A stretch of 64,000 nt of DNA, from assembly GCA_048938105.1 (NCBI GenBank), contig JBHLMN010000012.1, positions 96,001 to 160,000 on the forward strand. The letters are read 5' to 3'. The stretch is from Promethearchaeota archaeon. Its GTDB lineage: Archaea > Asgardarchaeota > Heimdallarchaeia > Hodarchaeales > Hodarchaeaceae. Below the pieces are notes generated by a model. That model saw only the letters and a program-made list of their open reading frames with translations. It was not told where the DNA came from and did no database searches. Shown here in pieces: positions 49,762 through 61,709 of the stretch (its first letter is position 1; every line of letters begins with the position of its first letter). A program made the translations under genes and the position numbers.

Positions 49762-50703
49762 TTAGCTTAATATTTCAATTAATTTGACCAAATCCTCTTT
49801 ATTGATGGCAACAACATCTGCTTCAGGAAATATATTGCGGTTGTTTTCTGAAATTCCCTGTCCTCCGATTGCAATACGAATTTGGTTTTTGAAAACATTA
49901 TGTAAATACTCTAAATTTCGTTTAAGAGTACCAAGATATAACGGAAGGGTAATGGAGATAAATATCCAATCAGGTAATTCAGGAAGATCTTTGATATATT
50001 TGATTAAGGATTGGATGGGTAAAGCTCGCCCCAGATTAATAATCTTGTAATTTAAATCCCGAAGAATATATTCTAAGGCAAATAAACTGAGAACATGTCT
50101 TTCACCTTCTACAGGTACTAAAATGATAATTCCTTTTTCCTCTATATTTTCATTTACTGGTATTCTTGCAACGATTAGCTCTTCAACGCGATTAGAAATA
50201 ATGTGTTCTTCCGCAGTTGAAAGATTCGCTTGAGCCCATTGTACACCGACCTCATGCATTAGTGGTGTGATAAAATCAACAATAAAGGGTGTACTATTAG
50301 GAAACATTGATTCTATGTTTACTGAGAACTCCTCAACATCATAATTTGATGATTTCAGATATCTGATCATTTCTTGTATGGAGGCTAATTTTAAAACAGA
50401 GGGTTTTTCTATTCTTCCTTTCTCCTCAGGCTTCTTCTTTTCTTTTAATATCTCATTCTCATGTATATATAGTTCTTTGATTAGATCATCAGTTAAATAT
50501 ACAACAGTATACCGCCCCCGTTTAAGTGGGCGTCGTTCGATTTCGATATAACCTTGTAAATTTAGTTCTTTTATGGCATTAGAAATTGTTGAACGTTTAA
50601 GATCTAAATTGGATGCAAGTTCAGAAACAGGGACTTCCCTTCCGCGATTTTGCCTTAAGTATCGAAAAATACGATCTCTGGCTGGTAATTGGACATTTTC
50701 CAT
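49762..50703 (-). CDS. wHTH + B12-binding regulator with CarH/LitR-type photoreceptor signature
   Basis: N-terminal MarR/ArsR-like wHTH (VSELASNLDLKRSTISNAIKELNLQGYI); helical cap PLMHEVGVQWAQANLSTAEEH (W-x9-EH); Rossmann domain EGERHVLSL, NLG..LP, ISIT, IGGQG; downstream of crtB on the same strand. Confidence 0.85.
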   Translation of the reverse strand: MENVQLPARDRIFRYLRQNRGREVPVSELASNLDLKRSTISNAIKELNLQGYIEIERRPLKRGRYTVVYLTDDLIKELYIHENEILKEKKKPEEKGRIEKPSVLKLASIQEMIRYLKSSNYDVEEFSVNIESMFPNSTPFIVDFITPLMHEVGVQWAQANLSTAEEHIISNRVEELIVARIPVNENIEEKGIIILVPVEGERHVLSLFALEYILRDLNYKIINLGRALPIQSLIKYIKDLPELPDWIFISITLPLYLGTLKRNLEYLHNVFKNQIRIAIGGQGISENNRNIFPEADVVAINKEDLVKLIEILS

Positions 50704-50772
50704 AAGGCATTGTTACCTTCTTATTGATATTCTTATGATTTCTTCATGACTTACTCTTATTTTATGAACCAG

Positions 50773-51717
50773 CTAAAGTTTACGAAGGTACTCTAAACGT
50801 ACTTTAGTTGCCAAAATAATCTTTCTTAGTTTAGAAACAACTGCCCGTTGATTTAATATTTGATAATCAATTCTTTTTATCTCATTTAGAATTTCCCCAT
50901 AGACTCTTGAGGCCACTTTTACAGTATAAGCTCCTGCAGGTGGTAATTCCTCAATACCAAGATCAGCTATCTTATAAAGAGCTTTCGCTCGCTCTGATTC
51001 GTAACGAATGAGTGATTTGAGGTTCTCATTCACTTTATCACCCCTTAGATCCTCAATCGTAACCTGATAATCATTCCGAGTTTCTTCTGGTAGATATATT
51101 CGCCCCTTGAGGAAATCCTCTTTGATATCTCTTAATATATTGGTTAATTGCATTGCTCTACCTAGATCTGCAGCTCGTGCTAGAGTTCGTTTTTCTGGAT
51201 TTTTGATGAAGATGTGAGTCATCATTAAACCAACAGTACTTGCAACCCGATACATGTATAAGTCAAGTTCTTCTTCTGAATAGTACTCGGTTTTTATAAG
51301 ATCCATTCTCACACCTTCTATAAGCTCATGCATGTAATTAACTGGAATTTGATGTTTACGTAACGTATCTCCAAAGGCATGAAGGATAGGATTTGTAGAG
51401 CTATATCCATTGGCCAATTTTGTTATAGTACTTTTCAATCGATCAAGTTCAAAATTAATCTTATCAATCGTAATCCCCTTAGGGGCTTCATCAACTATAT
51501 CATCACTTAAACGACATATAGCATAGAGAGCAGCAACGCTTTTACGCTGATCTTCAGGTAAAAATCGACTAGCGAAATAGAATGACTTGCTATGCTCTAT
51601 CATCCAGTCTAGACAGATTTGATAGCTTTCTTCAAGTGTTTCATCCATCAAACTATGTTTAGGTGTCGTACTTTTGGGAAGAAGTTCCCAATCAATTGTT
51701 TTGTGAGTTGAATACAT
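50773..51717 (-). CDS. crtB: Phytoene synthase
   Basis: HSKSFYFASRFLP, ALYAICRLSDDIVD, YMYRVASTVGLM, LGRAMQLTNILRDIKED..GRIYLP, RAVVS. Confidence 0.95.
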   Translation of the reverse strand: MYSTHKTIDWELLPKSTTPKHSLMDETLEESYQICLDWMIEHSKSFYFASRFLPEDQRKSVAALYAICRLSDDIVDEAPKGITIDKINFELDRLKSTITKLANGYSSTNPILHAFGDTLRKHQIPVNYMHELIEGVRMDLIKTEYYSEEELDLYMYRVASTVGLMMTHIFIKNPEKRTLARAADLGRAMQLTNILRDIKEDFLKGRIYLPEETRNDYQVTIEDLRGDKVNENLKSLIRYESERAKALYKIADLGIEELPPAGAYTVKVASRVYGEILNEIKRIDYQILNQRAVVSKLRKIILATKVRLEYLRKL

Positions 51718-51739
51718 TTTCTAATTCACTTATTAATAT

Positions 51740-51840
51740 TTCATGAATTAGTTCAACTTCATGAATAAACATTTAAATATTTTTCGAATGTAGGTAATCA
51801 ATCAAAAAAGTGTCATTTGTCAAGTAGACATTACTTTTTT
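51740..51840. promoter_or_regulatory. Divergent crtB/crtI promoter with candidate operator palindromes
   Basis: TTCATGAA palindrome at 51740-47 and 51758-65; TTTAAATA box near 51772; nested inverted repeat AAAAAAGT(51804-11)..TGTC-n5-GACA(51818-30)..ACTTTTTT(51833-40). Confidence 0.5.
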
Positions 51841-51861
51841 GGATAAATAAAAGTGAGAAAA

Positions 51862-53436
51862 ATGAGTAATGGACATAATAAACGTAATATAGCCTTTGAT
51901 AATAAAAACCCTGAAACGTTTCTCGAATCAGTGGTAATTATAGGCTCTGGGATTGGTGGACTGGCGGCGGGAATACGCCTTCAGACAACAGGAAAATTTA
52001 ATGTTACTATTATAGAAAAACTAGACCAAGTTGGTGGTCGGGCCAGAGTCTTTAAAGATCAAGGGTTTACTTTTGATGGAGGTCCTACGGTAATAACTGT
52101 ACCTGACATTTTTAAGGATTTATTTACTTTACCTGGTCGAAAAATGGAGGATTATGTCGAATTAATACCAGTGGAGCCGTTTTATCGAATCCATTTTAAC
52201 GATGGGACATTTTTTGATTATTCTACTCCGGAAAAAAATATACCTCAAATTGAAAAAGTAAATCCTGAAGATGTAGAAGGATATAAACGCATGCTTAAAG
52301 CAGTTCGACCGATCTACGAGAAGGGGTTCAAAGAATTATCATTTAAACCTTTTAACAAGTTTACTTCAATGCTTAAAGTAGCTCCCTCCCTCATCAAGTT
52401 ACAATCATACCGTTCAAATTATAAATTTGTCTCTAAATATATAAAAAATGAGAATCTCCGAATGGTATTTAGTTTTCACCCTTTACTTATTGGGGGGAAT
52501 CCTTTCTCGGTTCCATCAATTTATAGTCTTATTCAATACCTGGAAAAAGAATTTGGAGTTTGGTTTGTGCGTGGTGGTACAAATGCTTTAGTTCAGGCGT
52601 TAGCAAACTTATTTGAGGAGCTTGGGGGTAAAATCATTTTGAATAGTGAGGTTAAAAAAATTGAAGTTAAAGATAATCAAGTAGAGGGCGTTTTAACTGT
52701 TTCGAATGATTTTTATCCAAGTAAAATCGTAATAAGTAATGCTGACCCCGCTTTTACATACACAAAAATGATTGATGCAGAGTGGCGCAGGAAAAACAGT
52801 GATAAGCGTTATAAAAAAGCGAAATATTCTATGGGATTAGTTGTAATTTATTTTGGAACGAAAAGACAATATCCAAATATGAAACATCACACTATTATTT
52901 TGGGTCCCCGGTATAAAGGACTAATAGAAGATATTTTCAAGAAAAAGATTTTAGCAGAAGATTTTTCGAGCTATTTACATCTCCCCACTCGGACTGATCC
53001 AAGTTTAGCTCCTGAAGGACATGAAGCCTTTTATATCCTGATTCCCGTCCCTCATCAAGATTCTGGTATTAATTGGGAAGAAATGGCTGAACCATTTAAA
53101 CAACGAATCTTTGATTTTCTGAATGAAAATTATCTCCCTGAACTAAAAGAGAACTTAGTGACAGAGCGAATTTTTACTCCTCTAGATTTTGAACGAGACT
53201 ATAATAGCTTTAAAGGATCTGGTTTTTCTGTTGAACCAATTTTTACTCAATCAGCGTGGTTCCGTCCACATAACAAATCTGAAGATATTGATGGTCTTTA
53301 TTTAGTGGGTGCTGGAACCCATCCAGGAGCAGGATTGCCTGGAGTTGTCTCCAGTGCAAAAGTAACCACAGATTTGATCATCAATGGGAAAAATGGATTT
53401 TCAAAAAAACCCTCTGGAATAAGTAATGCTAATTAG
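51862..53436 (+). CDS. crtI: Phytoene desaturase (CrtI family)
   Basis: IGSGIGGLAAGIRL, GGRA....GFTFDGGPTVIT, FSFHPLLIGGNPF, QSAWFRPHN, LYLVGAGTHPGAGLPGV. Confidence 0.95.
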   Translation: MSNGHNKRNIAFDNKNPETFLESVVIIGSGIGGLAAGIRLQTTGKFNVTIIEKLDQVGGRARVFKDQGFTFDGGPTVITVPDIFKDLFTLPGRKMEDYVELIPVEPFYRIHFNDGTFFDYSTPEKNIPQIEKVNPEDVEGYKRMLKAVRPIYEKGFKELSFKPFNKFTSMLKVAPSLIKLQSYRSNYKFVSKYIKNENLRMVFSFHPLLIGGNPFSVPSIYSLIQYLEKEFGVWFVRGGTNALVQALANLFEELGGKIILNSEVKKIEVKDNQVEGVLTVSNDFYPSKIVISNADPAFTYTKMIDAEWRRKNSDKRYKKAKYSMGLVVIYFGTKRQYPNMKHHTIILGPRYKGLIEDIFKKKILAEDFSSYLHLPTRTDPSLAPEGHEAFYILIPVPHQDSGINWEEMAEPFKQRIFDFLNENYLPELKENLVTERIFTPLDFERDYNSFKGSGFSVEPIFTQSAWFRPHNKSEDIDGLYLVGAGTHPGAGLPGVVSSAKVTTDLIINGKNGFSKKPSGISNAN

Positions 53437-54260
53437 TGGAAGAAATTGTAATGTTAACATATTTCATCTTCCTCCTTTTCTTTATTGTTATACCTTTGAT
53501 GGTAATCAGTTTTTTTTATTATAAGAAATATCGTGGAGGGGAAGAATATCAAAAAACGATGATAAAAAAAATCTTAATTGTGTTAGCGATATTAATAATT
53601 GTAGCTATTACTTATACTACTCCATGGGATAATTTTCTCGTCGAAAATGGCATTTGGTATTATGAGACATCGAAAGTTATGGGTATTTTAATTGGTTTTG
53701 TACCCATTGAAGAATATGGCTTTTTCGTATTGCAGACTCTCTTTATTGGATTGCTATTCGGATGGATTCTGCTTCATAGAAAGAAAATCAGTCATAATCA
53801 GAATAATTTTAGAGTTAATTTACGCCTGATTTCAGCGATTGGGCTACTTATTGTTTGGATTGTAGGATTTCTTGCATTTATTAACAGAATAGAAACTTTA
53901 ACTTATCTGAATTTAATCCTTTTATGGGGAATACCTCCAATAATGATTCAACTGATCTATGGCGCTGATATTCTCTGGTTGTACAATCGAGACCTTATCT
54001 CAGTCATCTCTCTCTCAACTATTTACTTAGCTATTGCAGATACTATTGCGATTGCAGATGGAATCTGGACAATTAGTATAAATACATCAACAGGGATTCT
54101 TTTGGCTGGAGTTTTACCTATTGAAGAGTTTGTCTTTTTCTTGGTCACTAATATATTAATTACTTTTGGATTAACCTTAATGATTGATTCTAGGAGTATT
54201 GATAGATTTCATCAATACTTTTCTAGATTAAAAGAACACAAGTGGAGAAATAAGTTATGA
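53436..54260 (+). CDS. crtY: Lycopene cyclase, fused heterodimeric type (CrtYc/d / CarR-like, two domains)
   Basis: YTTPWDNFLV..GIW...PIEEYGFF and AD.IAI..GIW...LPIEEFVFF; translationally coupled to crtI. Confidence 0.9.
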   Translation: MEEIVMLTYFIFLLFFIVIPLMVISFFYYKKYRGGEEYQKTMIKKILIVLAILIIVAITYTTPWDNFLVENGIWYYETSKVMGILIGFVPIEEYGFFVLQTLFIGLLFGWILLHRKKISHNQNNFRVNLRLISAIGLLIVWIVGFLAFINRIETLTYLNLILLWGIPPIMIQLIYGADILWLYNRDLISVISLSTIYLAIADTIAIADGIWTISINTSTGILLAGVLPIEEFVFFLVTNILITFGLTLMIDSRSIDRFHQYFSRLKEHKWRNKL

Positions 54261-54377: not shown

Positions 54378-54830
54378 ATGTTAAATAACGTAATAGAATA
54401 TCTTAATGAGTCTGTAATACCTTTGCGGCTTTCTGGTACCACTAAATCAGGCTGGCCATTTGTAATGAGCCTTTGGTATGTTTATTTAAATGAAAAAATT
54501 TACTTAGCAACTATAAAATCAGCTAAAGTCGTTGATTATCTTTCTAATAACCCCAAATGTGCTTTTGAAATTGCCAGTGATACTCCACCTTATTGTGGGA
54601 TTCGAGGACAAGCAATGGCAAAAATTATTGAATCTAAGGGGGATGAAATTCTAAAAATCCTTCTAAATCGTTATCTAGGAGGAGAAAATAGTCCTTTAGC
54701 CCGAAGACTGTTGAATCAACGTATACCAGAGGTTGCGATTGAGCTTACTCCTGTTAAAGTGTATCAATGGGATTATAGTAAGCGAATGATTGACTCGATT
54801 GAATTTTCTTCAGTTAAAAAGTGTCCATAA
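54378..54830 (+). CDS. Pyridoxamine 5'-phosphate oxidase-like flavin-binding protein
   Basis: PLRLS....GWPFVMSLWY, CAFEIA...PPYCGIRGQA, WDYSKRM. Confidence 0.85.
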   Translation: MLNNVIEYLNESVIPLRLSGTTKSGWPFVMSLWYVYLNEKIYLATIKSAKVVDYLSNNPKCAFEIASDTPPYCGIRGQAMAKIIESKGDEILKILLNRYLGGENSPLARRLLNQRIPEVAIELTPVKVYQWDYSKRMIDSIEFSSVKKCP

Positions 54831-54867
54831 ATAAGAACGATAAAAAAACCAGTAAAAAGGTGATATT

Positions 54868-55287
54868 ATGTCAGATATCAAATATTCTGCTGGAGTATGC
54901 AATATCGGTGACGCTGAAATAAAACAAAGACGTCGATTAGGATATATAGGCATTGGTCTTACTGTGATAGCAATTATTGTATATTTAGGATTGATTTATT
55001 CTATAAAATTAGATCCATTCTTTGGAGTGATTATTTTCATACCTGCTGAAATGTCAGCTATTGGGTTAATTCAAGCTAGGAACAAATTTTGCGCTGCTTA
55101 TGGATTGATTCACCAACAGAACGTTTCCTCAAGCTTAGGCTTAACTGTGAAAATAGGCAATAAAAATTCCCAGAGAAAGGATAGGAACAAAGCTCTTAAA
55201 ATTATTTTTCAATCCCTAGTAATTGCGATTATCATTACTGTTTTTACAGTTATTGGAGGGATTTTGATAGCTCAAAGTATTATTTAG
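54868..55287 (+). CDS. 3-TM conserved membrane protein with two Cys motifs (DUF2892/YgaP-like pattern)
   Basis: GVCNIGDAEIKQRRR and QARNKFCAAYG; GGTGA RBS. Confidence 0.6.
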   Translation: MSDIKYSAGVCNIGDAEIKQRRRLGYIGIGLTVIAIIVYLGLIYSIKLDPFFGVIIFIPAEMSAIGLIQARNKFCAAYGLIHQQNVSSSLGLTVKIGNKNSQRKDRNKALKIIFQSLVIAIIITVFTVIGGILIAQSII

Positions 55288-55376
55288 GTTTGAATATAGG
55301 TTGAAAAAAAGCATAAGAGATAAATATGAATCAAATCAATATACTCAATCTTAGGGAGAGGATTTTTCCTACTCCA

Positions 55377-56114
55377 TTAAAAAATTCGTCCTAGTGACGC
55401 GTCTAAGATTTTTCCAGTCATTAGAGGAGTAGTTGCAGCAAATTCTATCATTTCATTCAAATCCTTAGGTAATAATGGGTAATTAAGAAGCTGTTTTGAT
55501 ATTAATTTCGATGATAGAACCTCAATTGTTGTACCATTATCCATAGATTTCTTTTCCAATTCTCTATTATGTCGATCCGTAAAAACATATGTAGGAGAAA
55601 CTCCGTTAATTCGAATTTTGGGAGCCAAAACTCTAGCCATTGTACGAATTAAATAGACTAATCCAGCTTTCGCAACTCCATAAGGCATTTTATCCAATGA
55701 AGGTTCATAAGCAGCAGAACTAACGATATGTACTATAGCTCCGCCTTCTATCATAAGTTCAGCTGCCATTCTTGTTAATAAGAAAGCAGATGTTAGATTC
55801 ACATTTATTACACGATTGAAAAATGAAGCATCCACTTCTAATGGATTTTTTGAAGCCAAGGATCCCCCTATATTATTTATCAGAATGTCTATTGATCCAA
55901 TTTTAGTCTGTACCCATTTCTTTACCTTTCTAATTCCTTCCTCGGTTGTGCAATCAGCTGCAATATTATTAATTCCTGGAAAACGATCATTTATCATATT
56001 TAGACTGGATATGAGAACCTCATTATTCTGATTAGAAAGTTTTCTCATAATTGCCTCTCCAATCCCTCCAACAGCAACACCAGTAACTAGAATTTTCTTA
56101 TTTTCGATGATCAT
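55377..56114 (-). CDS. Short-chain dehydrogenase/reductase
   Basis: LVTGVAVGGIG, DILINNIG, VNL, YGVAK, IRINGVSP. Confidence 0.9.
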   Translation of the reverse strand: MIIENKKILVTGVAVGGIGEAIMRKLSNQNNEVLISSLNMINDRFPGINNIAADCTTEEGIRKVKKWVQTKIGSIDILINNIGGSLASKNPLEVDASFFNRVINVNLTSAFLLTRMAAELMIEGGAIVHIVSSAAYEPSLDKMPYGVAKAGLVYLIRTMARVLAPKIRINGVSPTYVFTDRHNRELEKKSMDNGTTIEVLSSKLISKQLLNYPLLPKDLNEMIEFAATTPLMTGKILDASLGRIF

Positions 56115-56159
56115 GATTAATTTCCTCAGTTATGTTGTTAATGGTTTAATTTATTACAT

Positions 56160-56648
56160 CTAGTCATCTATTTTCAGAGTTTGAGTTTTAAGTAATTTAT
56201 AATTTTTAGGAAATCCCCAATCTTCAATCTTATTGTAACTTGTTTTTTTTGATCGAAAATGTACCCATATTGTTGTACTATCAAGAAGTGGATTAGCATG
56301 GTAATGCTTTTGATCACCATATCGAAAAGCTTCTAGTACTAGGGGTAATTCCTGACGAAAAATTCTATCACGAAACTTTAAAGGGCCAATTCCCCCACTT
56401 ACTTGACAATAGACATGGAGTGAATATACATTTTCGGTTTTCAACCATTCAGCTAACACTTCATCCCGCATTATCCGTGTTTGCCATCCTTTTAGTTGTT
56501 TTTTGTTAAACTCATGGGCAATGGTGAGAAATAAATCTCCTGTCCGATCTGAATGGGTTAATGTATAGCAACGAGGTACTAGAGGAGAATCAATGGTTGT
56601 TGGGGGTATAAATGTAACATTTAGTTTATTTGGGTTTAAGCGATTCAA
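56160..56648 (-). CDS. sgr: Stay-Green (SGR) family protein, putative Mg-dechelatase
   Basis: PRCYTLTHSDRTGDLFLTI, RDEVLAEW, LHVYCQVSG, RIFRQELPLVLEAFRYGD, WVHFRS....YNKIEDWG; all SGR blocks present. Confidence 0.92.
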   Translation of the reverse strand: MNRLNPNKLNVTFIPPTTIDSPLVPRCYTLTHSDRTGDLFLTIAHEFNKKQLKGWQTRIMRDEVLAEWLKTENVYSLHVYCQVSGGIGPLKFRDRIFRQELPLVLEAFRYGDQKHYHANPLLDSTTIWVHFRSKKTSYNKIEDWGFPKNYKLLKTQTLKIDD

Positions 56649-56674
56649 GGTAGAAATCCTTCTATTTGAAAGAA

Positions 56675-58177
56675 CTAAGTTGTAGATAAATAATAGGGCT
56701 TAGGAGTAGAGCTTATTTTAGTATATGTAAGACTATCTCCAGGAATATCCCTACAAATTTCCTCTAACAGCTTTTTTGACAGCATGTCGAAAAATGGTTG
56801 GATCATAAACCAATAGGCTATCCCAATAAGCCCTTTTGGGACTATTCGAAAAATCTGATGAAGTTCAATTTTTTTGTGATTAATACGCCTTAAACGATAT
56901 CTTAGGATGGTATAACCAGGTAAGATGAAATCTGTATGTAATGTTAATTCTTTCTTTGGAATTTTATTCTGAATTGAAAGAGGAGTCTTTTTCATCTCTC
57001 CCTTGTCCTTAAAACCTTTGAAAAAACCGTTTAGAAAAGCACCAAATTTCCATAAGTATAAATTGATCTGAAAATTTCTATATTTCTCAATCTGAAGTAA
57101 TTTGTTCCACAAATTCTCAGGATTACTAGTTAAAATAGCCTTACGATGATCTTGGAAGACAAATCCTCCAGACCAGGATGGATCCCCTGGAATGTGCCAT
57201 TCAACGGGTAAATCATAATAGCTAGAATAACTTCCGTACCTAAGATACTGTTGGGGGTTTAATGCTAATCGAATTGCTTGTTTATGGTTTAGTAACTTCT
57301 GTGGAATCAATTCTCGTATCCTAAAATCATGACAAACAACCTCATTCTTCATTCCATCTATTAATGGACGAGCTAAAGATGATTGAATGCCTGTAATCAA
57401 TCTTATCCAATAGGAGCTTAGGCTAGGAGTGAAGAAAGGGATAGGGAGAATTAAACGCTTTGGTAGTGCCATAATTTCCACATAACTCTCCATAAACTGT
57501 TTATAAGTGATAATATCTGAACCACCAATATCAAAGGTCTCACCGATTGTTTCTGGTACATCTAAACAGTCAGTTAGATATTTCAGAACATTTCGAATAG
57601 CTATTGGTTGATTTCTTGTTCTAAGCCACTTGGGTGTAATCATAATTGGCAATCTATTGACTAGATACCTCATCATCTCAAAAGCTGCGCTTCCACTCCC
57701 AATAATAATTGCTGCACGTAACGTTGTAACTGGTACTGAACATGAATTCAGTATTCTGGAAACTTCGATTCGAGACTGTAGATGCTTACTTAATTTTTCT
57801 TTTTCGTCCCCTAATCCCCCAAGATAAATAATTCTTTCAATTGCTGCCTTTTCAGCTGCAATTATTGTGTTTTGGGCTGCAATTCTATCAGATCTAATAA
57901 AATCTTTTATTTTTCCTTCCATAGAATGGATTAAATAGTAAACCGAGGAGACTTCTTCCATTGCGTCTTCTAAGGTTTTAATATCGAAAACATTAAGATT
58001 TACCGTTTTCAAATTCCTATGATGACTCCATAATCTCATATTTAGCTTGTCTTTTGACCTAAACCCCACTCGTACAATATATCCTTTCTTTAAGAGTTTT
58101 GGTACAAGTCTGGAACCTATGTAACCTGTGGCCCCAAGTACAAGAACTTCTTTTTGTTTCAAGGGAAATCTACTCAT
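56675..58177 (-). CDS. Atypical SDR (YbjT-like) with C-terminal DUF2867-like domain
   Basis: GATGYIGSRL, YYLIHSM, IYLGGLG, SKHLQSR, LRAAIIIGSGSAAFE, RLPIMITPKW, QPIAI, GDPSWSGG, PKGLIGIAYW. Confidence 0.88.
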   Translation of the reverse strand: MSRFPLKQKEVLVLGATGYIGSRLVPKLLKKGYIVRVGFRSKDKLNMRLWSHHRNLKTVNLNVFDIKTLEDAMEEVSSVYYLIHSMEGKIKDFIRSDRIAAQNTIIAAEKAAIERIIYLGGLGDEKEKLSKHLQSRIEVSRILNSCSVPVTTLRAAIIIGSGSAAFEMMRYLVNRLPIMITPKWLRTRNQPIAIRNVLKYLTDCLDVPETIGETFDIGGSDIITYKQFMESYVEIMALPKRLILPIPFFTPSLSSYWIRLITGIQSSLARPLIDGMKNEVVCHDFRIRELIPQKLLNHKQAIRLALNPQQYLRYGSYSSYYDLPVEWHIPGDPSWSGGFVFQDHRKAILTSNPENLWNKLLQIEKYRNFQINLYLWKFGAFLNGFFKGFKDKGEMKKTPLSIQNKIPKKELTLHTDFILPGYTILRYRLRRINHKKIELHQIFRIVPKGLIGIAYWFMIQPFFDMLSKKLLEEICRDIPGDSLTYTKISSTPKPYYLSTT

Positions 58178-58189
58178 TCTAAGAGGACA

Positions 58190-58960
58190 TCAATAATCTT
58201 GACGAGCTTTCCAGAAATCACCATAAAAGAAAAATCCAATCAGTTGAGAAAATACGAATATTATTGATATAACTATTCCTAAATACTGTAATATAAGAAT
58301 TTGATTACTATGGAAGATATACAGAGGGATAAAGTTCAATAAGAACCAAATCCACGAAAGAATTGGAGCAGATATGAACATAAGAGATCTTTTCCATTTT
58401 GAAACAGATAAGAAGGAACTCAAATCATATTTTATTCCAAAAATAGGAAGTTTCGTTATAGGTGTCCAAGCTAGCAAGTTTGATTTACGAAATGTGGATT
58501 TGAAAATAAAATAATTTCTAAAGTTTAATCCTAAAAGAAAACCAAATATGCAATGGATTACGGTATGAGAGAGCATAAAGTTTACAAAACTGATTAGAAA
58601 GAACAAAATAACACTAAACCAAAAATCTACAGAAAAATAAAAGGCTAAAAAATAAAGAATTTCTGAGATGAGAACACCAACTGAGAATAGTAAAGTTCCG
58701 ACTTTAATTGAAAATTTTGGAACGTTCCAACTATCGAAGAAGAATTCATCAATTCTCCCTAAAATATCTATTTCTTCCTCTGTTATTTTTACTTTTCGTG
58801 CATATTTTACAGCAGTTTGATATTTTCTCCAATGACTCTTCCGATTTAATGTTCCTGTTTCATATGAATCCTCTAAATCCTTGATATTCCTACTAAAATT
58901 AGTGTTATCCATTTGAGAACCTTCCCTAGAACTGTAGTTCTTATTAGTTATACTTAACAT
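58190..58960 (-). CDS. Uncharacterised membrane protein with HxxxH motif (M50/zincin-like, lacking the catalytic Glu)
   Basis: ~4 TM; LSHTVIH, ISAP, GDFWKA; directly downstream of heliorhodopsin on the same strand. Confidence 0.6.
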   Translation of the reverse strand: MLSITNKNYSSREGSQMDNTNFSRNIKDLEDSYETGTLNRKSHWRKYQTAVKYARKVKITEEEIDILGRIDEFFFDSWNVPKFSIKVGTLLFSVGVLISEILYFLAFYFSVDFWFSVILFFLISFVNFMLSHTVIHCIFGFLLGLNFRNYFIFKSTFRKSNLLAWTPITKLPIFGIKYDLSSFLSVSKWKRSLMFISAPILSWIWFLLNFIPLYIFHSNQILILQYLGIVISIIFVFSQLIGFFFYGDFWKARQDY

Positions 58961-59019
58961 TATAATTCTAGTGATCGAGGTTTGAAAATAAAAAGAGGGG
59001 AAGGATCATAATGACCCAA

Positions 59020-59832
59020 TTAAGCAAATATTAACCCCATAAATACAATCCAAGCTAATGCTGATTTTGCAAAGAGGCTTAATAATTGATAACCTCGTTC
59101 TCCATATAGATAATCTTTCCATGGGCCTATTTTCTTATACTGAAGAAACATATTCAAGGCAAAGCTGTTAAAGAAGACGAAATAAACTACTAAGGCAATA
59201 TAGACAAAAGTAGGAACTTCTCGTCCAACTGTGTTAATACTCAAGAATGTATCAAGGATGACGATCCAGGGCATTATTCCAGCTATCCATCCTAGGATAT
59301 AAGGAGCCCAGCTTGTTTTTTCAGTATATTGGTTATAAGTCTCCATTAACAACCCAAACATGTTCATTAATCCATTAAGCACGAATATCAGAGCAAGAAT
59401 CCAAAATTCTAGTATTCCAAAAGCTAAAGCAATGAATATGATCATCACTGAACTGGAAAAAGCATACTCATACCAACGTACTGGATTCATTTCTTTCTTT
59501 AAATTGGTAACATATTTGTTATATAATGGAAAAGCAATCAGTAAATGAGCAATAGCTGACATTAGAAGAAAACTAGCAAGCAGGATACCTGCAATGTTTT
59601 CAAAAGTGAAAAAAACTTCGGGGATAGGCTCAAGAACTGGACGAGTACCAGTTAATTCTTTTATTCCTAAATACGACCTATAAATGTCGATTTTGAAGTT
59701 TTTTATTTCATCAATTACTAAACTCAGAGCAAATATAACTGTTGCTTGCACTAAGTGCAAGATACCCATGGCTATATTGAATTTCCGGAGATAGGAAAAT
59801 GATATTTTTGACTTTTCAATGTTAGTTGACAT
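59020..59832 (-). CDS. heR: Heliorhodopsin
   Basis: LRKFNIAMGILHLVQA, FLLMSAIAH, NPVRWYEYAFSSSVM (counterion E), MNMFGLLME, FNSFALNMFLQYKKIGPWKDYLYGERGY, LSLFAKSALAW (retinal-binding Lys); GGAGG RBS. Confidence 0.97.
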   Translation of the reverse strand: MSTNIEKSKISFSYLRKFNIAMGILHLVQATVIFALSLVIDEIKNFKIDIYRSYLGIKELTGTRPVLEPIPEVFFTFENIAGILLASFLLMSAIAHLLIAFPLYNKYVTNLKKEMNPVRWYEYAFSSSVMIIFIALAFGILEFWILALIFVLNGLMNMFGLLMETYNQYTEKTSWAPYILGWIAGIMPWIVILDTFLSINTVGREVPTFVYIALVVYFVFFNSFALNMFLQYKKIGPWKDYLYGERGYQLLSLFAKSALAWIVFMGLIFA

Positions 59833-60051
59833 TAAGCAACCTCCTATGGATTTAGACAGAAGAGTCCTTCTTTATATATTCATTATGATAATTAAAACGT
59901 AAATCACCAATAAATCTAGATCTAGAATTAATGACTTGAATCAGGATGAAGTTCTATTACTGAAAAAATAAAGAATCTATTATAATGTGAACCTAAAACT
60001 TGCTGATTGATGAACTAGTACTTCTAAAATCACAAAGAATGGTGAAGGCTG

Positions 60052-60828
60052 ATGTCTCTTACAAAACAAAAACAATTTTTGATTTATGGTAACATCTTGA
60101 GCTTTTTATTAACTATCGTGATGAATTCTTTAGCCAACATCCTTCCTTTGAATGGAAAAACAACTGCAGAACTCAGTGACTCTTTCCCTAACTTATTTGT
60201 CCCCGCTGGGTATGTTTTTAGTATCTGGGGATTGATCTACATTTTATTAGCAATTTTCACGGTTTCCCAAGCCCTTCCCAAGTATAGAGAGGAGGATGTT
60301 ATTGAAAAAATCTCCTATTTCTTTATTATAAGCAATCTGGCTAATTCATCATGGATTGTATTTTGGCACTTTGAAATAATAATCGCATCCTTATTGGTTA
60401 TGTTGATACTCCTTGTATCTTTAATACTAATCTATACCCGATTAGAAATTGGAAAGAAGCCCGTGAGTGAAAAAATTAAGATCACTTCTCATATCCCATT
60501 TAGTGTTTACCTGGGATGGATTACTGTTGCAACTGTTGCAAATGTTACAGCTTTACTTGTATCAATAAACTGGGATGGTTTTGGCATAAGTGAAGTCATC
60601 TGGACTGCAGTTGTAATAAGTGTTGCAACAATAATTGCACTAGTTATCGTATTCACCCGGAAAGACTATGCCTACGTTCTTGTCCCCGTCTGGGCTTTTA
60701 TAGGAATAGCAGTAAAGCAATTAAATACTCAAAACGATGTTGTTATAATTTCTGTTATAGCAGCAGTTATTTTAGTCATAACATTGCTTGTTAGACTTTC
60801 ATTGGATTTAGTTCAGAATCGAAAATGA
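60052..60828 (+). CDS. tspO: TspO/MBR-like tryptophan-rich sensory protein (long form)
   Basis: N.LA..LPLNG.TT.ELSD, FVPAGYVFSIWGLIY, NSSWIVFW, PFSVYLGWITVATVAN, VWAFIGI. Confidence 0.78.
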   Translation: MSLTKQKQFLIYGNILSFLLTIVMNSLANILPLNGKTTAELSDSFPNLFVPAGYVFSIWGLIYILLAIFTVSQALPKYREEDVIEKISYFFIISNLANSSWIVFWHFEIIIASLLVMLILLVSLILIYTRLEIGKKPVSEKIKITSHIPFSVYLGWITVATVANVTALLVSINWDGFGISEVIWTAVVISVATIIALVIVFTRKDYAYVLVPVWAFIGIAVKQLNTQNDVVIISVIAAVILVITLLVRLSLDLVQNRK

Positions 60829-61709
60829 ATGATAATAATTTTAGATCACTAATTACTTCACTCATAATAATATGCATTGCTGCATGTCTTGCACTCATTG
60901 GTAGCCACAGGGGTATAACTGTTTTTGGTGGAATACCAGTATTTGCACTTGGAGTAGCTATTGCCTTTATAATTCAATGGATTGCGTTTATACCTGCTTA
61001 TATCAAAAGAACAGAGAAATTTTTCGATTTGACTGGCTCTTTGACTTACAGTATTGTGATTATTTTTTCAGTTGTTTTGAGTTCTGAAATCAATATACGA
61101 TCTATTTTACTGATGTTTTTGGTCTTGATCTGGGCGATTCGCCTTGGTATGTTCTTGTTTAGGAGAATACTGAAAGAGGGTGAGGATAAACGCTTCAAGG
61201 AAATCAAAGAATCAGGTTCGCGTTTTCTATTAACTTGGACTCTTCAAGGTTTGTGGGTTAGCTTTACATTAGCAGCTGCATTGGCTGCGATCACAGTAAA
61301 ACAGAGGGTAGAATTTGGCGTCTTTGGTTTAATTGGTCTTCTGGTTTGGATCATAGGCTTTGGATTTGAAGCTGTTGCAGACTATCAGAAGAGTAAATTC
61401 AGATCTATTCCTGAAAACAAAGGAAAATTTATTACTACTGGATTATGGTCGATATCACGACATCCCAATTACTTTGGAGAGATCCTCCTATGGATCGGTA
61501 TTGCAATCATTGCACTTCCAACACTTCAAGGTTGGAGATGGCTAACACTAATTTCTCCTATTTTTGTCACATTATTATTGACCAAGGTTAGTGGTATTCC
61601 ATTACTTGAGAAACATGCAGATGAAAAGTGGGGTGGTCAGGAGGAATATGAGCAATACAAAAGTAAGACTCCAGTATTAATCCCAAGGCCATTCTTCAAA
61701 TCAAATTAA
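60825..61709 (+). CDS. DUF1295 (steroid 5-alpha-reductase/ICMT-fold) membrane protein
   Basis: TEKFFDLTGS, WAIRLG.FLF.RI...GEDKRF, WTLQGLW, EAVADYQK, GLWSISRHPNYFGE, SGIPLLE; ATGA overlap with tspO. Confidence 0.9.
   Translation: MNDNNFRSLITSLIIICIAACLALIGSHRGITVFGGIPVFALGVAIAFIIQWIAFIPAYIKRTEKFFDLTGSLTYSIVIIFSVVLSSEINIRSILLMFLVLIWAIRLGMFLFRRILKEGEDKRFKEIKESGSRFLLTWTLQGLWVSFTLAAALAAITVKQRVEFGVFGLIGLLVWIIGFGFEAVADYQKSKFRSIPENKGKFITTGLWSISRHPNYFGEILLWIGIAIIALPTLQGWRWLTLISPIFVTLLLTKVSGIPLLEKHADEKWGGQEEYEQYKSKTPVLIPRPFFKSN

Follow-up and report, generated by a model that had tools for sequence, protein, structure and literature searches.

A regulator gene that adjoins the carotenoid gene crtB in an archaeon of the order Hodarchaeales probably encodes a previously undescribed archaeal light switch for pigment synthesis, as is suggested by its constant position beside carotenoid genes and by a conserved double site that is unique in the genome. 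The gene lies in a stretch of 64,000 nucleotides from a Promethearchaeota archaeon (assembly GCA_048938105.1, contig JBHLMN010000012.1, positions 96,001 to 160,000 of the forward strand), which we call the window and whose numbering we use throughout. We propose, with a probability of about 0.6, that the regulator is an adenosylcobalamin (AdoCbl)-dependent, light-released repressor of crtB, of its own gene, and probably of crtI. The domain architecture, the conservation of the motifs, the synteny, the conservation of the operator, and the presence of an adenosyltransferase gene are established. The functional interpretation gains independent support from synteny in 12 loci, from strict co-occurrence with crtI, and from the genome-unique double operator at a TATA box. 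The genes concerned are the following:

49762-50703, minus strand: regulator gene, 313 amino acids, with a winged helix-turn-helix (wHTH) head, a linker, and a cobalamin-binding domain (open reading frame [ORF], Pfam and NCBIfam profiles, AlphaFold2 model, and about 40 Asgard homologs)
50773-51717, minus strand: crtB, phytoene synthase (PF00494, E 1.7e-73; synteny), the predicted direct target, co-directional with the regulator gene
51853-54260, plus strand: divergent crtI (phytoene desaturase) and a lycopene-cyclase-like gene (profile match, synteny), a possible second target

The regulator ORF starts with ATG, and 69 bp separate this codon from the crtB stop, just as an earlier note, made from the sequence alone, had placed it. 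crtI itself occupies 51853-53436 and is divergent from both crtB and the regulator gene. Regulation of crtI and the cyclase-like gene through the shared spacer is possible.

The C-terminal part of the regulator has the makeup of a CarH-type cobalamin-binding domain. An AlphaFold2 model of the regulator built on 21 homologs (mean predicted local distance difference test score [pLDDT] of 85) contains two subdomains in this region, and the first of them carries the Wx9EH motif:

50164-50379, minus strand: four-helix-bundle subdomain, residues 109-180 (helices 109-117, 123-133, 137-157, and 163-180; weak B12-binding_2 match)
49768-50130, minus strand: Rossmann subdomain, residues 192-312 (AlphaFold2, motif, and Foldseek matches to the B12 domains of photocobilins, CarH, and MetH)
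50203-50238, minus strand: Wx9EH motif (W156, E166, H167), encoded as WAQANLSTAEEH, the predicted cap over the 5'-deoxyadenosyl group

Across the 21 homologs, which share 38-78% identity with the regulator, no substitution occurs at W156, E166, H167, or the predicted lower-ligand residue H203, and the conservation of E201 is 90% or more. E201-x-H203 falls within ERHVLS, encoded at 50086-50103, and the full Rossmann motif reads E201xH203x2S206-x43-S250xT252-x27-G280G281, the family form being [D/E]xHx2(S/G/P/N/A/T)-x43-SxT-x27-GG. Judged by sequence comparison, these motifs exceed chance. Wx9EH recurs in 175 of the 180 proteins retrieved in two protein searches (family members and their nearest relatives), and the exceptions are mostly short N-terminal fragments. 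The presence of Wx9EH alongside the classic B12-binding motif marks AdoCbl-dependent CarH as opposed to B12-independent CarA, in which the Trp of Wx9EH is lost (PMC9304148; PMC8156234).

Comparisons with known structures point the same way. By sequence, profile, and fold, the best PDB matches of the B12 domain are the photocobilins (8J2W-Y) and the MerR-family protein of Chloracidobacterium (8JBS), followed by CarH (5C8D), MetH, and corrinoid proteins; the PDB profile search with the regulator reached an E value of 3e-9. Foldseek aligns the model with 5C8D, 8C31, 8J2W, and 8JBS at a probability of 1.0 and template modeling (TM) scores of 0.45-0.54, normalized to the full query. NCBIfam returns a weak match to the CarH equivalog at residues 141-240, and homologs of the regulator have precomputed PF02310 and PF02607 matches. 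The earlier note had recognized a CarH-type cobalamin domain by Wx9EH and ExH, and this identification is upheld by the conservation of the motifs and by the agreement of fold and PDB matches. Its observation that Ser replaces the usual Gly after ExH (GERHVLS) is also correct, the local form being ExHx2S.

The N-terminal head and the linker that joins it to the B12 domain are delimited as follows:

50494-50682, minus strand: wHTH, residues 8-70, three helices and a beta-hairpin wing (Pfam, alignment, AlphaFold2, and Foldseek)
50380-50493, minus strand: charged linker, residues 71-108 (pLDDT below 50 and disordered at residues 87-103; variable in the alignment)

Both the recognition helix (TISNAIKEL) and the basic wing ERRPLKRGRYTV are conserved, and the head modeled alone has a pLDDT of 91. 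Pfam identifies a winged HTH at residues 11-72, where HTH_11 scores 31.5 bits, over its cut-off, and weaker matches are to MarR_2 (26.5 bits versus a cut-off of 27), HTH_27, HTH_20/ArsR, HTH_5 (16.4 versus 22), and TrmB; the regulator has no MerR or MerR_1 Pfam match. Foldseek retrieves MarR, ArsR/SmtB, PadR, Lrs14/AbfR2, Stf76, and PH1932 for the head at TM scores of 0.58-0.67, with no MerR structure among the matches listed, and the sequence matches of the head are weak and mixed (CodY, MarR, and Lrs14). Assignment of the wHTH to a single family failed, given that every match was weak and comparable, with MarR, ArsR, PadR, and Lrs14 about equal. The head is without the N- and C-terminal dimerization helices of true MarR proteins and without the alpha1 and alpha5 helices of ArsR proteins. 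As modeled, it is a minimal winged helix that resembles the MarR and ArsR folds and is a member of neither family, and its lack of dimerization helices agrees with pairing supplied by the B12 domain. Thus, where the earlier note had described a MarR/ArsR-like wHTH in place of MerR, the absence of MerR is borne out, whereas a particular kinship with MarR or ArsR is not, since PadR and Lrs14 match about equally well and the dimerization helices are missing. The long charged linker that it described is real, and the profile and structure predictions that it had proposed for both domains returned a winged helix and a four-helix bundle with a Rossmann fold.

Some relatives depart from this plan. 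In three loci (L007:8244-8480, L008:8244-8480, and L010:2715-2951) and in proteins P0033-P0035, a second, degenerate winged-helix-like domain replaces the linker; these longer variants, of 366-382 amino acids, accompany an operator spacer of 11 rather than 10 nt. In locus L004 (5727-6142), an extra reading frame between crtB and the regulator gene contains a wHTH-like stretch (IVYLRKNRGK...), which may represent either a small gene of its own or an N-terminal extension.

The predicted operators and the adjoining promoter element are located in the two gaps that flank crtB:

51740-51765, no strand assigned: predicted main operator, TTCATGAA-N10-TTCATGAA, in the crtB/crtI spacer, ending 22 nt before the crtB ATG
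51773-51780, no strand assigned: putative TATA-like box, TTTAAATA (ATATTTAAATA in orthologs), upstream of the operator on the crtB side
50743-50768, no strand assigned: weaker predicted second operator, TTCATAAA-N10-GTCATGAA (read on the minus strand), in the 69-bp gap between crtB and the regulator gene

TTCATGAA occurs three times in the window, and two of these sites form the pair in the crtB/crtI spacer, when shuffling gives an expectation of 0.01 pairs for the whole window. The third site (19901) was discarded as an operator candidate; it sits within an ORF of 1284 amino acids. An exact pair with a spacing of N10-11 is found once in the 5.85-Mb genome (G000) and once each in the related genomes G129, G138, and G291; a second exact pair in G255 is inside an ORF and was likewise set aside. 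TTCATGAA-N10/11-TTCATGAA is present in every crtI/crtB spacer examined, that is, in 11 orthologous loci and the window. When one mismatch per site at most is allowed, 145 kb of locus DNA contain the pair only in crtI/crtB spacers and in the gaps between crtB and the regulator gene. The orthologous spacers share the order TATA box, site, 10 or 11 variable nt, site, and from the conserved TATA box on the crtB side to the start of the pair downstream of it, the distance is 4-6 nt in most loci. Because the flanks and the spacer vary in the alignment of orthologous spacers while the sites are kept, the pair constitutes a clean phylogenetic footprint.

The position of the pair is informative as to its likely function. 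In nine of the 12 spacers examined, the sites fall between the TATA box and the crtB start, and a site in this interval has the classic position for an archaeal repressor. Transcription in archaea is expected to start about 25 nt after the TATA box, so that the start itself would be covered by site 2, with site 1 in the interval that separates it from the TATA box; this placement would be the usual one for an archaeal repressor. The TATA-like box at 51773-51780 is identical when read on either strand and could in principle serve crtI too. Scans for sigma-70 promoters and intrinsic terminators are inapplicable here as the host is an archaeon.

The second operator is conserved only in L001-L003, the three closest relatives of the window, and it is predicted from its sequence to serve autoregulation or an internal promoter. 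Also upstream of the regulator gene, at 50717-50749, are three adjoining 11-bp units (TCAnnAAGAAn) that were considered as an operator and rejected; they are not conserved in L001-L003, where TTCATAAA-N10-GTCATGAA is. Other sites in the genome (one mismatch per site at most) are within ORFs or beside unrelated genes (GNAT, a PCC-domain protein, and unknowns), and for this reason none was kept as a regulon member except crtB and the upstream region of the regulator. One of the two probe regions that the earlier note had suggested, 51718-51861, does contain the operator pair, whereas the other, 59833-60051, which is the spacer between the heliorhodopsin and TspO genes, contains no site pair.

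Two further arrangements of TTCATGAA were noted. The crtI/crtB spacers of L009 (6913-6958; 19-bp period) and L018 (4859-4913; 28 and 19 bp) have three TTCATGAA-like sites each, which hints at binding by a higher-order oligomer. An exact TTCATGAA-N12-TTCATGAA is present in contig C4 of G000 (94786-94813; L012:2787-2814), and approximately 230 bp separate it from a downstream gene for an Lhr-type DNA helicase (domains DEAD, DEAD_assoc, and WH_Lhr). Five related genomes yielded no exact N12-13 pair, and we thus treat this site as unproven; either chance or a second target specific to the lineage could account for it.

The regulator family consists of about 40 sequence clusters, all of them from Asgard metagenome-assembled genomes; its members have 302-324 or, in some cases, 366-382 amino acids, and Wx9EH and the E-x-H motif are conserved throughout these homologs. 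The NCBI labels of the hosts are Hodarchaeales, Heimdall-, Hermod-, Prometh-, Thor-, or Odinarchaeota, and Kariarchaeaceae. In all 12 distinct Asgard loci (11 from a scan of genome contigs and one from a genome search; 31-72% protein identity), crtB is followed directly by the regulator gene. crtI is divergent from crtB across a shared spacer in every locus but L006, where the contig starts inside crtB. A cyclase gene, a PNPOx-like gene, TspO, or DUF1295 is often near the syntenic loci. We sampled 300 genomes of the phylum and found the regulator family in 15 but not in the remaining ones sampled: the 15 are this genome, 12 of the 19 others that share its GTDB genus code, and two of the 11 genomes that represent a single further taxonomic family in its class. 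The genus code comprises 21 genomes. In each of the 13 that have the regulator, crtI shares its contig and lies within about 1-2.5 kb of it; the regulator is missing in all six that have no crtI match, and one genome has crtI at a contig end and no regulator was found in it, counts that are descriptive rather than a statistical test given that these genomes are kin. The B12 domains of Asgard archaea form one clade (43 rows; Shimodaira-Hasegawa-like support of 100). The grouping of this clade with XRE-linked forms has a support of 54, and in view of that value we claim no donor for the Asgard B12 domain.

Additional carotenoid genes and TspO recur around the regulator in some relatives. L006, L007 (10068-12531), and L010 (4209-5288) have a paralogous second crtI (55-57% identity) downstream of the regulator gene and a PNPOx-like gene. 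A second crtB (68-70%) is beside it in L006 and L007, and the contig of L010 ends inside the second crtI; no operator pair was found before the second crtI and crtB genes of these three loci. In several relatives (L004, L005, and L009), TspO is directly downstream of the regulator gene on the same strand and may thus be co-transcribed with it, with approximately 1.4 kb without annotation separating the two genes in L004. TspO of Rhodobacter (CrtK) is encoded within the crt cluster.

The genome, which is 99% complete with 7% contamination, encodes a corrinoid adenosyltransferase of the CobA/CobO type (E 1.6e-59), and a small ORF with a B12-binding domain is located about 1.8 kb downstream of this gene on the same contig. 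A PduO-type adenosyltransferase was not found in the genome.

From these findings we infer AdoCbl binding, a response to light, oligomerization, and the sign of a repressor, and we hypothesize that the regulator would act as photoreceptor and transcription factor in one component. In the dark, the C-terminal domain would hold AdoCbl, with H203 as the lower axial ligand and with W156, E166, and H167 as a cap over the adenosyl group. The holo form would oligomerize through the B12 domain in a CarH-like manner, and oligomerization would bring its flexibly linked winged-helix heads to both TTCATGAA sites, which separate the crtB TATA box from the gene start. Once filled, the sites would block the assembly of TBP, TFB, and RNA polymerase, and crtB, the regulator gene, and probably crtI and the cyclase gene would stay off. 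Cleavage of the Co-C bond by near-ultraviolet, blue, or green light would then break up the oligomer, detach the heads from the DNA, and turn on carotenoid synthesis. The regulator would be autoregulated, as is suggested by its downstream position, by the lack of a T-tract in the 69-bp gap after crtB, and by its own weaker site pair, and crtI may share this control, the TATA box being identical on either strand.

Several observations weigh against this proposal. Pfam scores for the B12 domain are below the gathering cut-offs, namely 25.7 bits versus 32.1 for PF02310 (B12-binding, residues 193-304) and 18.9 bits versus 23 for PF02607 (B12-binding_2, residues 140-175), and the domain call consequently rests on profile, fold, and motifs together. 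In the Hodarchaeales clade, Ser takes the place of the Gly or Pro of ExHxxG (G, P, N, A, or T in relatives), and the spacer from ExH to SxT has 43 residues versus 41 in the classic motif. The His that follows the Trp in Thermus CarH and makes its bis-His light state (PMC9304148) was found in no family member. As to the operator, 8-bp palindromes with centers 18-19 bp apart resemble neither the 11-bp repeats of CarH nor a typical site for a wHTH dimer, and in L005, L009, and L011 the sites are 63-82 nt from the crtB ATG and the TATA arrangement is different. Finally, the source samples are sediment and mangrove, where exposure to light is uncertain.

Some of these points would suit a cobalamin sensor that is no photoreceptor. 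Such a protein would report the availability of B12 or bind OH- or Me-cobalamin in the manner of AerR/PpaA and so tune the crt genes, with light as at most an indirect input through photolyzed B12. Sensing of the ligand alone would account for the B12 domain and the operator just as well, AerR (7TE2) is also among the Foldseek matches, the samples are sediments, and the Trp is not followed by a His that could form a light adduct as in CarH. We nevertheless regard this explanation as unlikely, although it deserves to be taken seriously: Wx9EH, the motif that covers the adenosyl group, has been linked to a role in photoreception (PMC8156234; PMC9304148), both the adjoining light-related genes and an association with carotenoid genes alone point to light, and AerR-type proteins are without a DNA-binding domain. 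We give a somewhat slimmer chance to a CarH-like photoreceptor of opposite sign or other mode, that is, a light-dependent activator, or a protein whose holo form acts on the crtI side (B recognition element/TATA box) and does not repress crtB. The TATA box is the same on both strands; for crtI, the sites would be upstream of it, as is usual for archaeal activators; and in L005 and L009 the sites are upstream of a TTTATAAAT box. Against an activator stands the repressor-like placement of the sites in nine of the 12 spacers. Moreover, every characterized CarH is a dark repressor (PMC8156234).

The invariant residues also bear on a B12-independent mode of action, in which the cobalamin fold would be only a scaffold for oligomerization and the signal would come through a partner protein. 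Myxobacterial CarA provides a precedent (PMC9304148), and the weak Pfam B12 scores would be in keeping with it, but CarA has lost the Trp of Wx9EH, whereas here neither W, E, and H nor the lower-ligand His varies at 38-78% identity, which indicates selection for cofactor binding and makes a CarA-like protein very improbable. A corrinoid carrier of a methyltransferase system, misread as a regulator, would explain why the Joint Genome Institute labels homologs 'methanogenic corrinoid protein MtbC1' and why NCBIfam yields MtgC and MtbC matches. These matches are weak, however, at 25-29 bits versus cut-offs of 350-370, a wHTH head and Wx9EH are present, and no methyltransferase gene is nearby, so that the architecture effectively refutes this explanation.

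We favor, then, an AdoCbl-dependent, light-released repressor, and this protein can be set beside several known systems. With CarH/LitR of Thermus thermophilus, Myxococcus xanthus, and Bacillus megaterium (5C8D/5C8E/5C8F), it shares the one-component plan of N-terminal head, flexible linker, and C-terminal B12 domain, the four-helix bundle and Rossmann fold with Wx9EH and ExH...SxT...GG, and the location beside carotenoid genes with an operator in a crt promoter. The head of CarH/LitR, however, is of the MerR type with an RxWERRY helix, whereas the regulator has a minimal MarR/ArsR/Lrs14-like winged helix without RxWERRY, and the CarH operator consists of 11-bp nAnnTnnACAn direct repeats over the -35/-10 region, in contrast to a pair of 8-bp TTCATGAA palindromes 18-19 bp apart by an archaeal TATA box. 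Thermus CarH differs further in having the His after the Trp, the classic motif has Gly or Pro at the position of the Ser, and the host of the regulator is an Asgard archaeon; similarity to Thermus CarH is low (E 5e-3 with a single sequence and 1e-5 with a profile). Without a MerR head and an operator of 11-bp direct repeats, the regulator is not a strict member of the CarH family.

Other Wx9EH-type B12 domains have different partners. The photocobilins and the MerR-family B12 domain of Chloracidobacterium thermophilum (8J2W-8J2Y, 8JBS/8JBT; PMC10979010) are photoactive; the photocobilins carry a globin-like biliverdin domain and enzyme outputs, whereas the regulator has no such domain and a DNA-binding output. 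Bacterial fusions of XRE (HTH_3) or ArsR (HTH_5) heads with B12 domains (P0113 from Fusibacter; P0164) also place Wx9EH on a non-MerR head and are the next-nearest relatives, although their heads are from other families, they are mostly bacterial, and the Asgard B12 domains form a clade apart. To our knowledge, none of these fusion proteins has been characterized. The heads among the 129 nearest non-Asgard relatives include 31 MerR, 27 XRE, and one ArsR. The non-MerR head, which the earlier note had presented as a departure from characterized CarH proteins, is indeed such a departure, but to judge from the sequences of these relatives the head swap is not unique to the regulator. Archaeal repressors of the Lrs14, MarR, and ArsR types that bind downstream of the TATA box also have a winged-helix head of small size, and their operator falls between this box and the start; we know of none with a B12 light-sensing module. 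The corrinoid proteins of methyltransferases and MetH, in contrast, have DxHxxG without Wx9EH, a partner methyltransferase, and no DNA-binding domain, whereas the regulator has Wx9EH and a wHTH.

Beyond the crt genes, a block of light-related genes extends over 54378-61709 of the window. It includes a PNPOx-like gene, an SDR gene, a homolog of Staygreen (Mg-dechelatase), an NmrA/DUF2867 protein, a 256-amino-acid protein without known function, a heliorhodopsin (PF18761, E 2e-85), TspO, and DUF1295. No TTCATGAA pair was found upstream of any gene in the block, and the operator thus gives no grounds for placing it in the predicted regulon. The public sequencing runs that contain the stretch are of sediment and mangrove DNA only, and there are no RNA runs among the public runs listed.

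In the literature that we searched, no B12 photoreceptor is described from Asgard or other archaea. A 2025 study of carotenoid and rhodopsin genes in Kariarchaeum reported a crtB-crtI operon that includes genes without known function (PMC12137139), one of which may be the regulator described here. We see roughly even odds that the regulator is the first archaeal B12 photoreceptor transcription factor, that is, a light-gated repressor of a eukaryote-like TBP/TFB promoter that would combine two 8-bp palindromes located between TATA box and start site, a minimal winged helix, and AdoCbl-driven oligomerization. A single protein of 313 amino acids and an operator of 26 bp are small and sharply defined, which makes the proposal directly testable and the pair attractive as an optogenetic part. 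If the proposal is correct, the B12 module can gate a promoter of the TATA/TFB type and would offer a compact green-light switch for archaeal and eukaryote-type promoters, and the B12 photosensor would be a portable cassette that is found on MerR, XRE, and archaeal winged-helix heads. Asgard archaea of the Hodarchaeales type, which are close relatives of eukaryotes, would then perceive light at the level of transcription, and photoprotective or antenna pigments would be under light regulation in the Asgard lineage nearest to eukaryotes.

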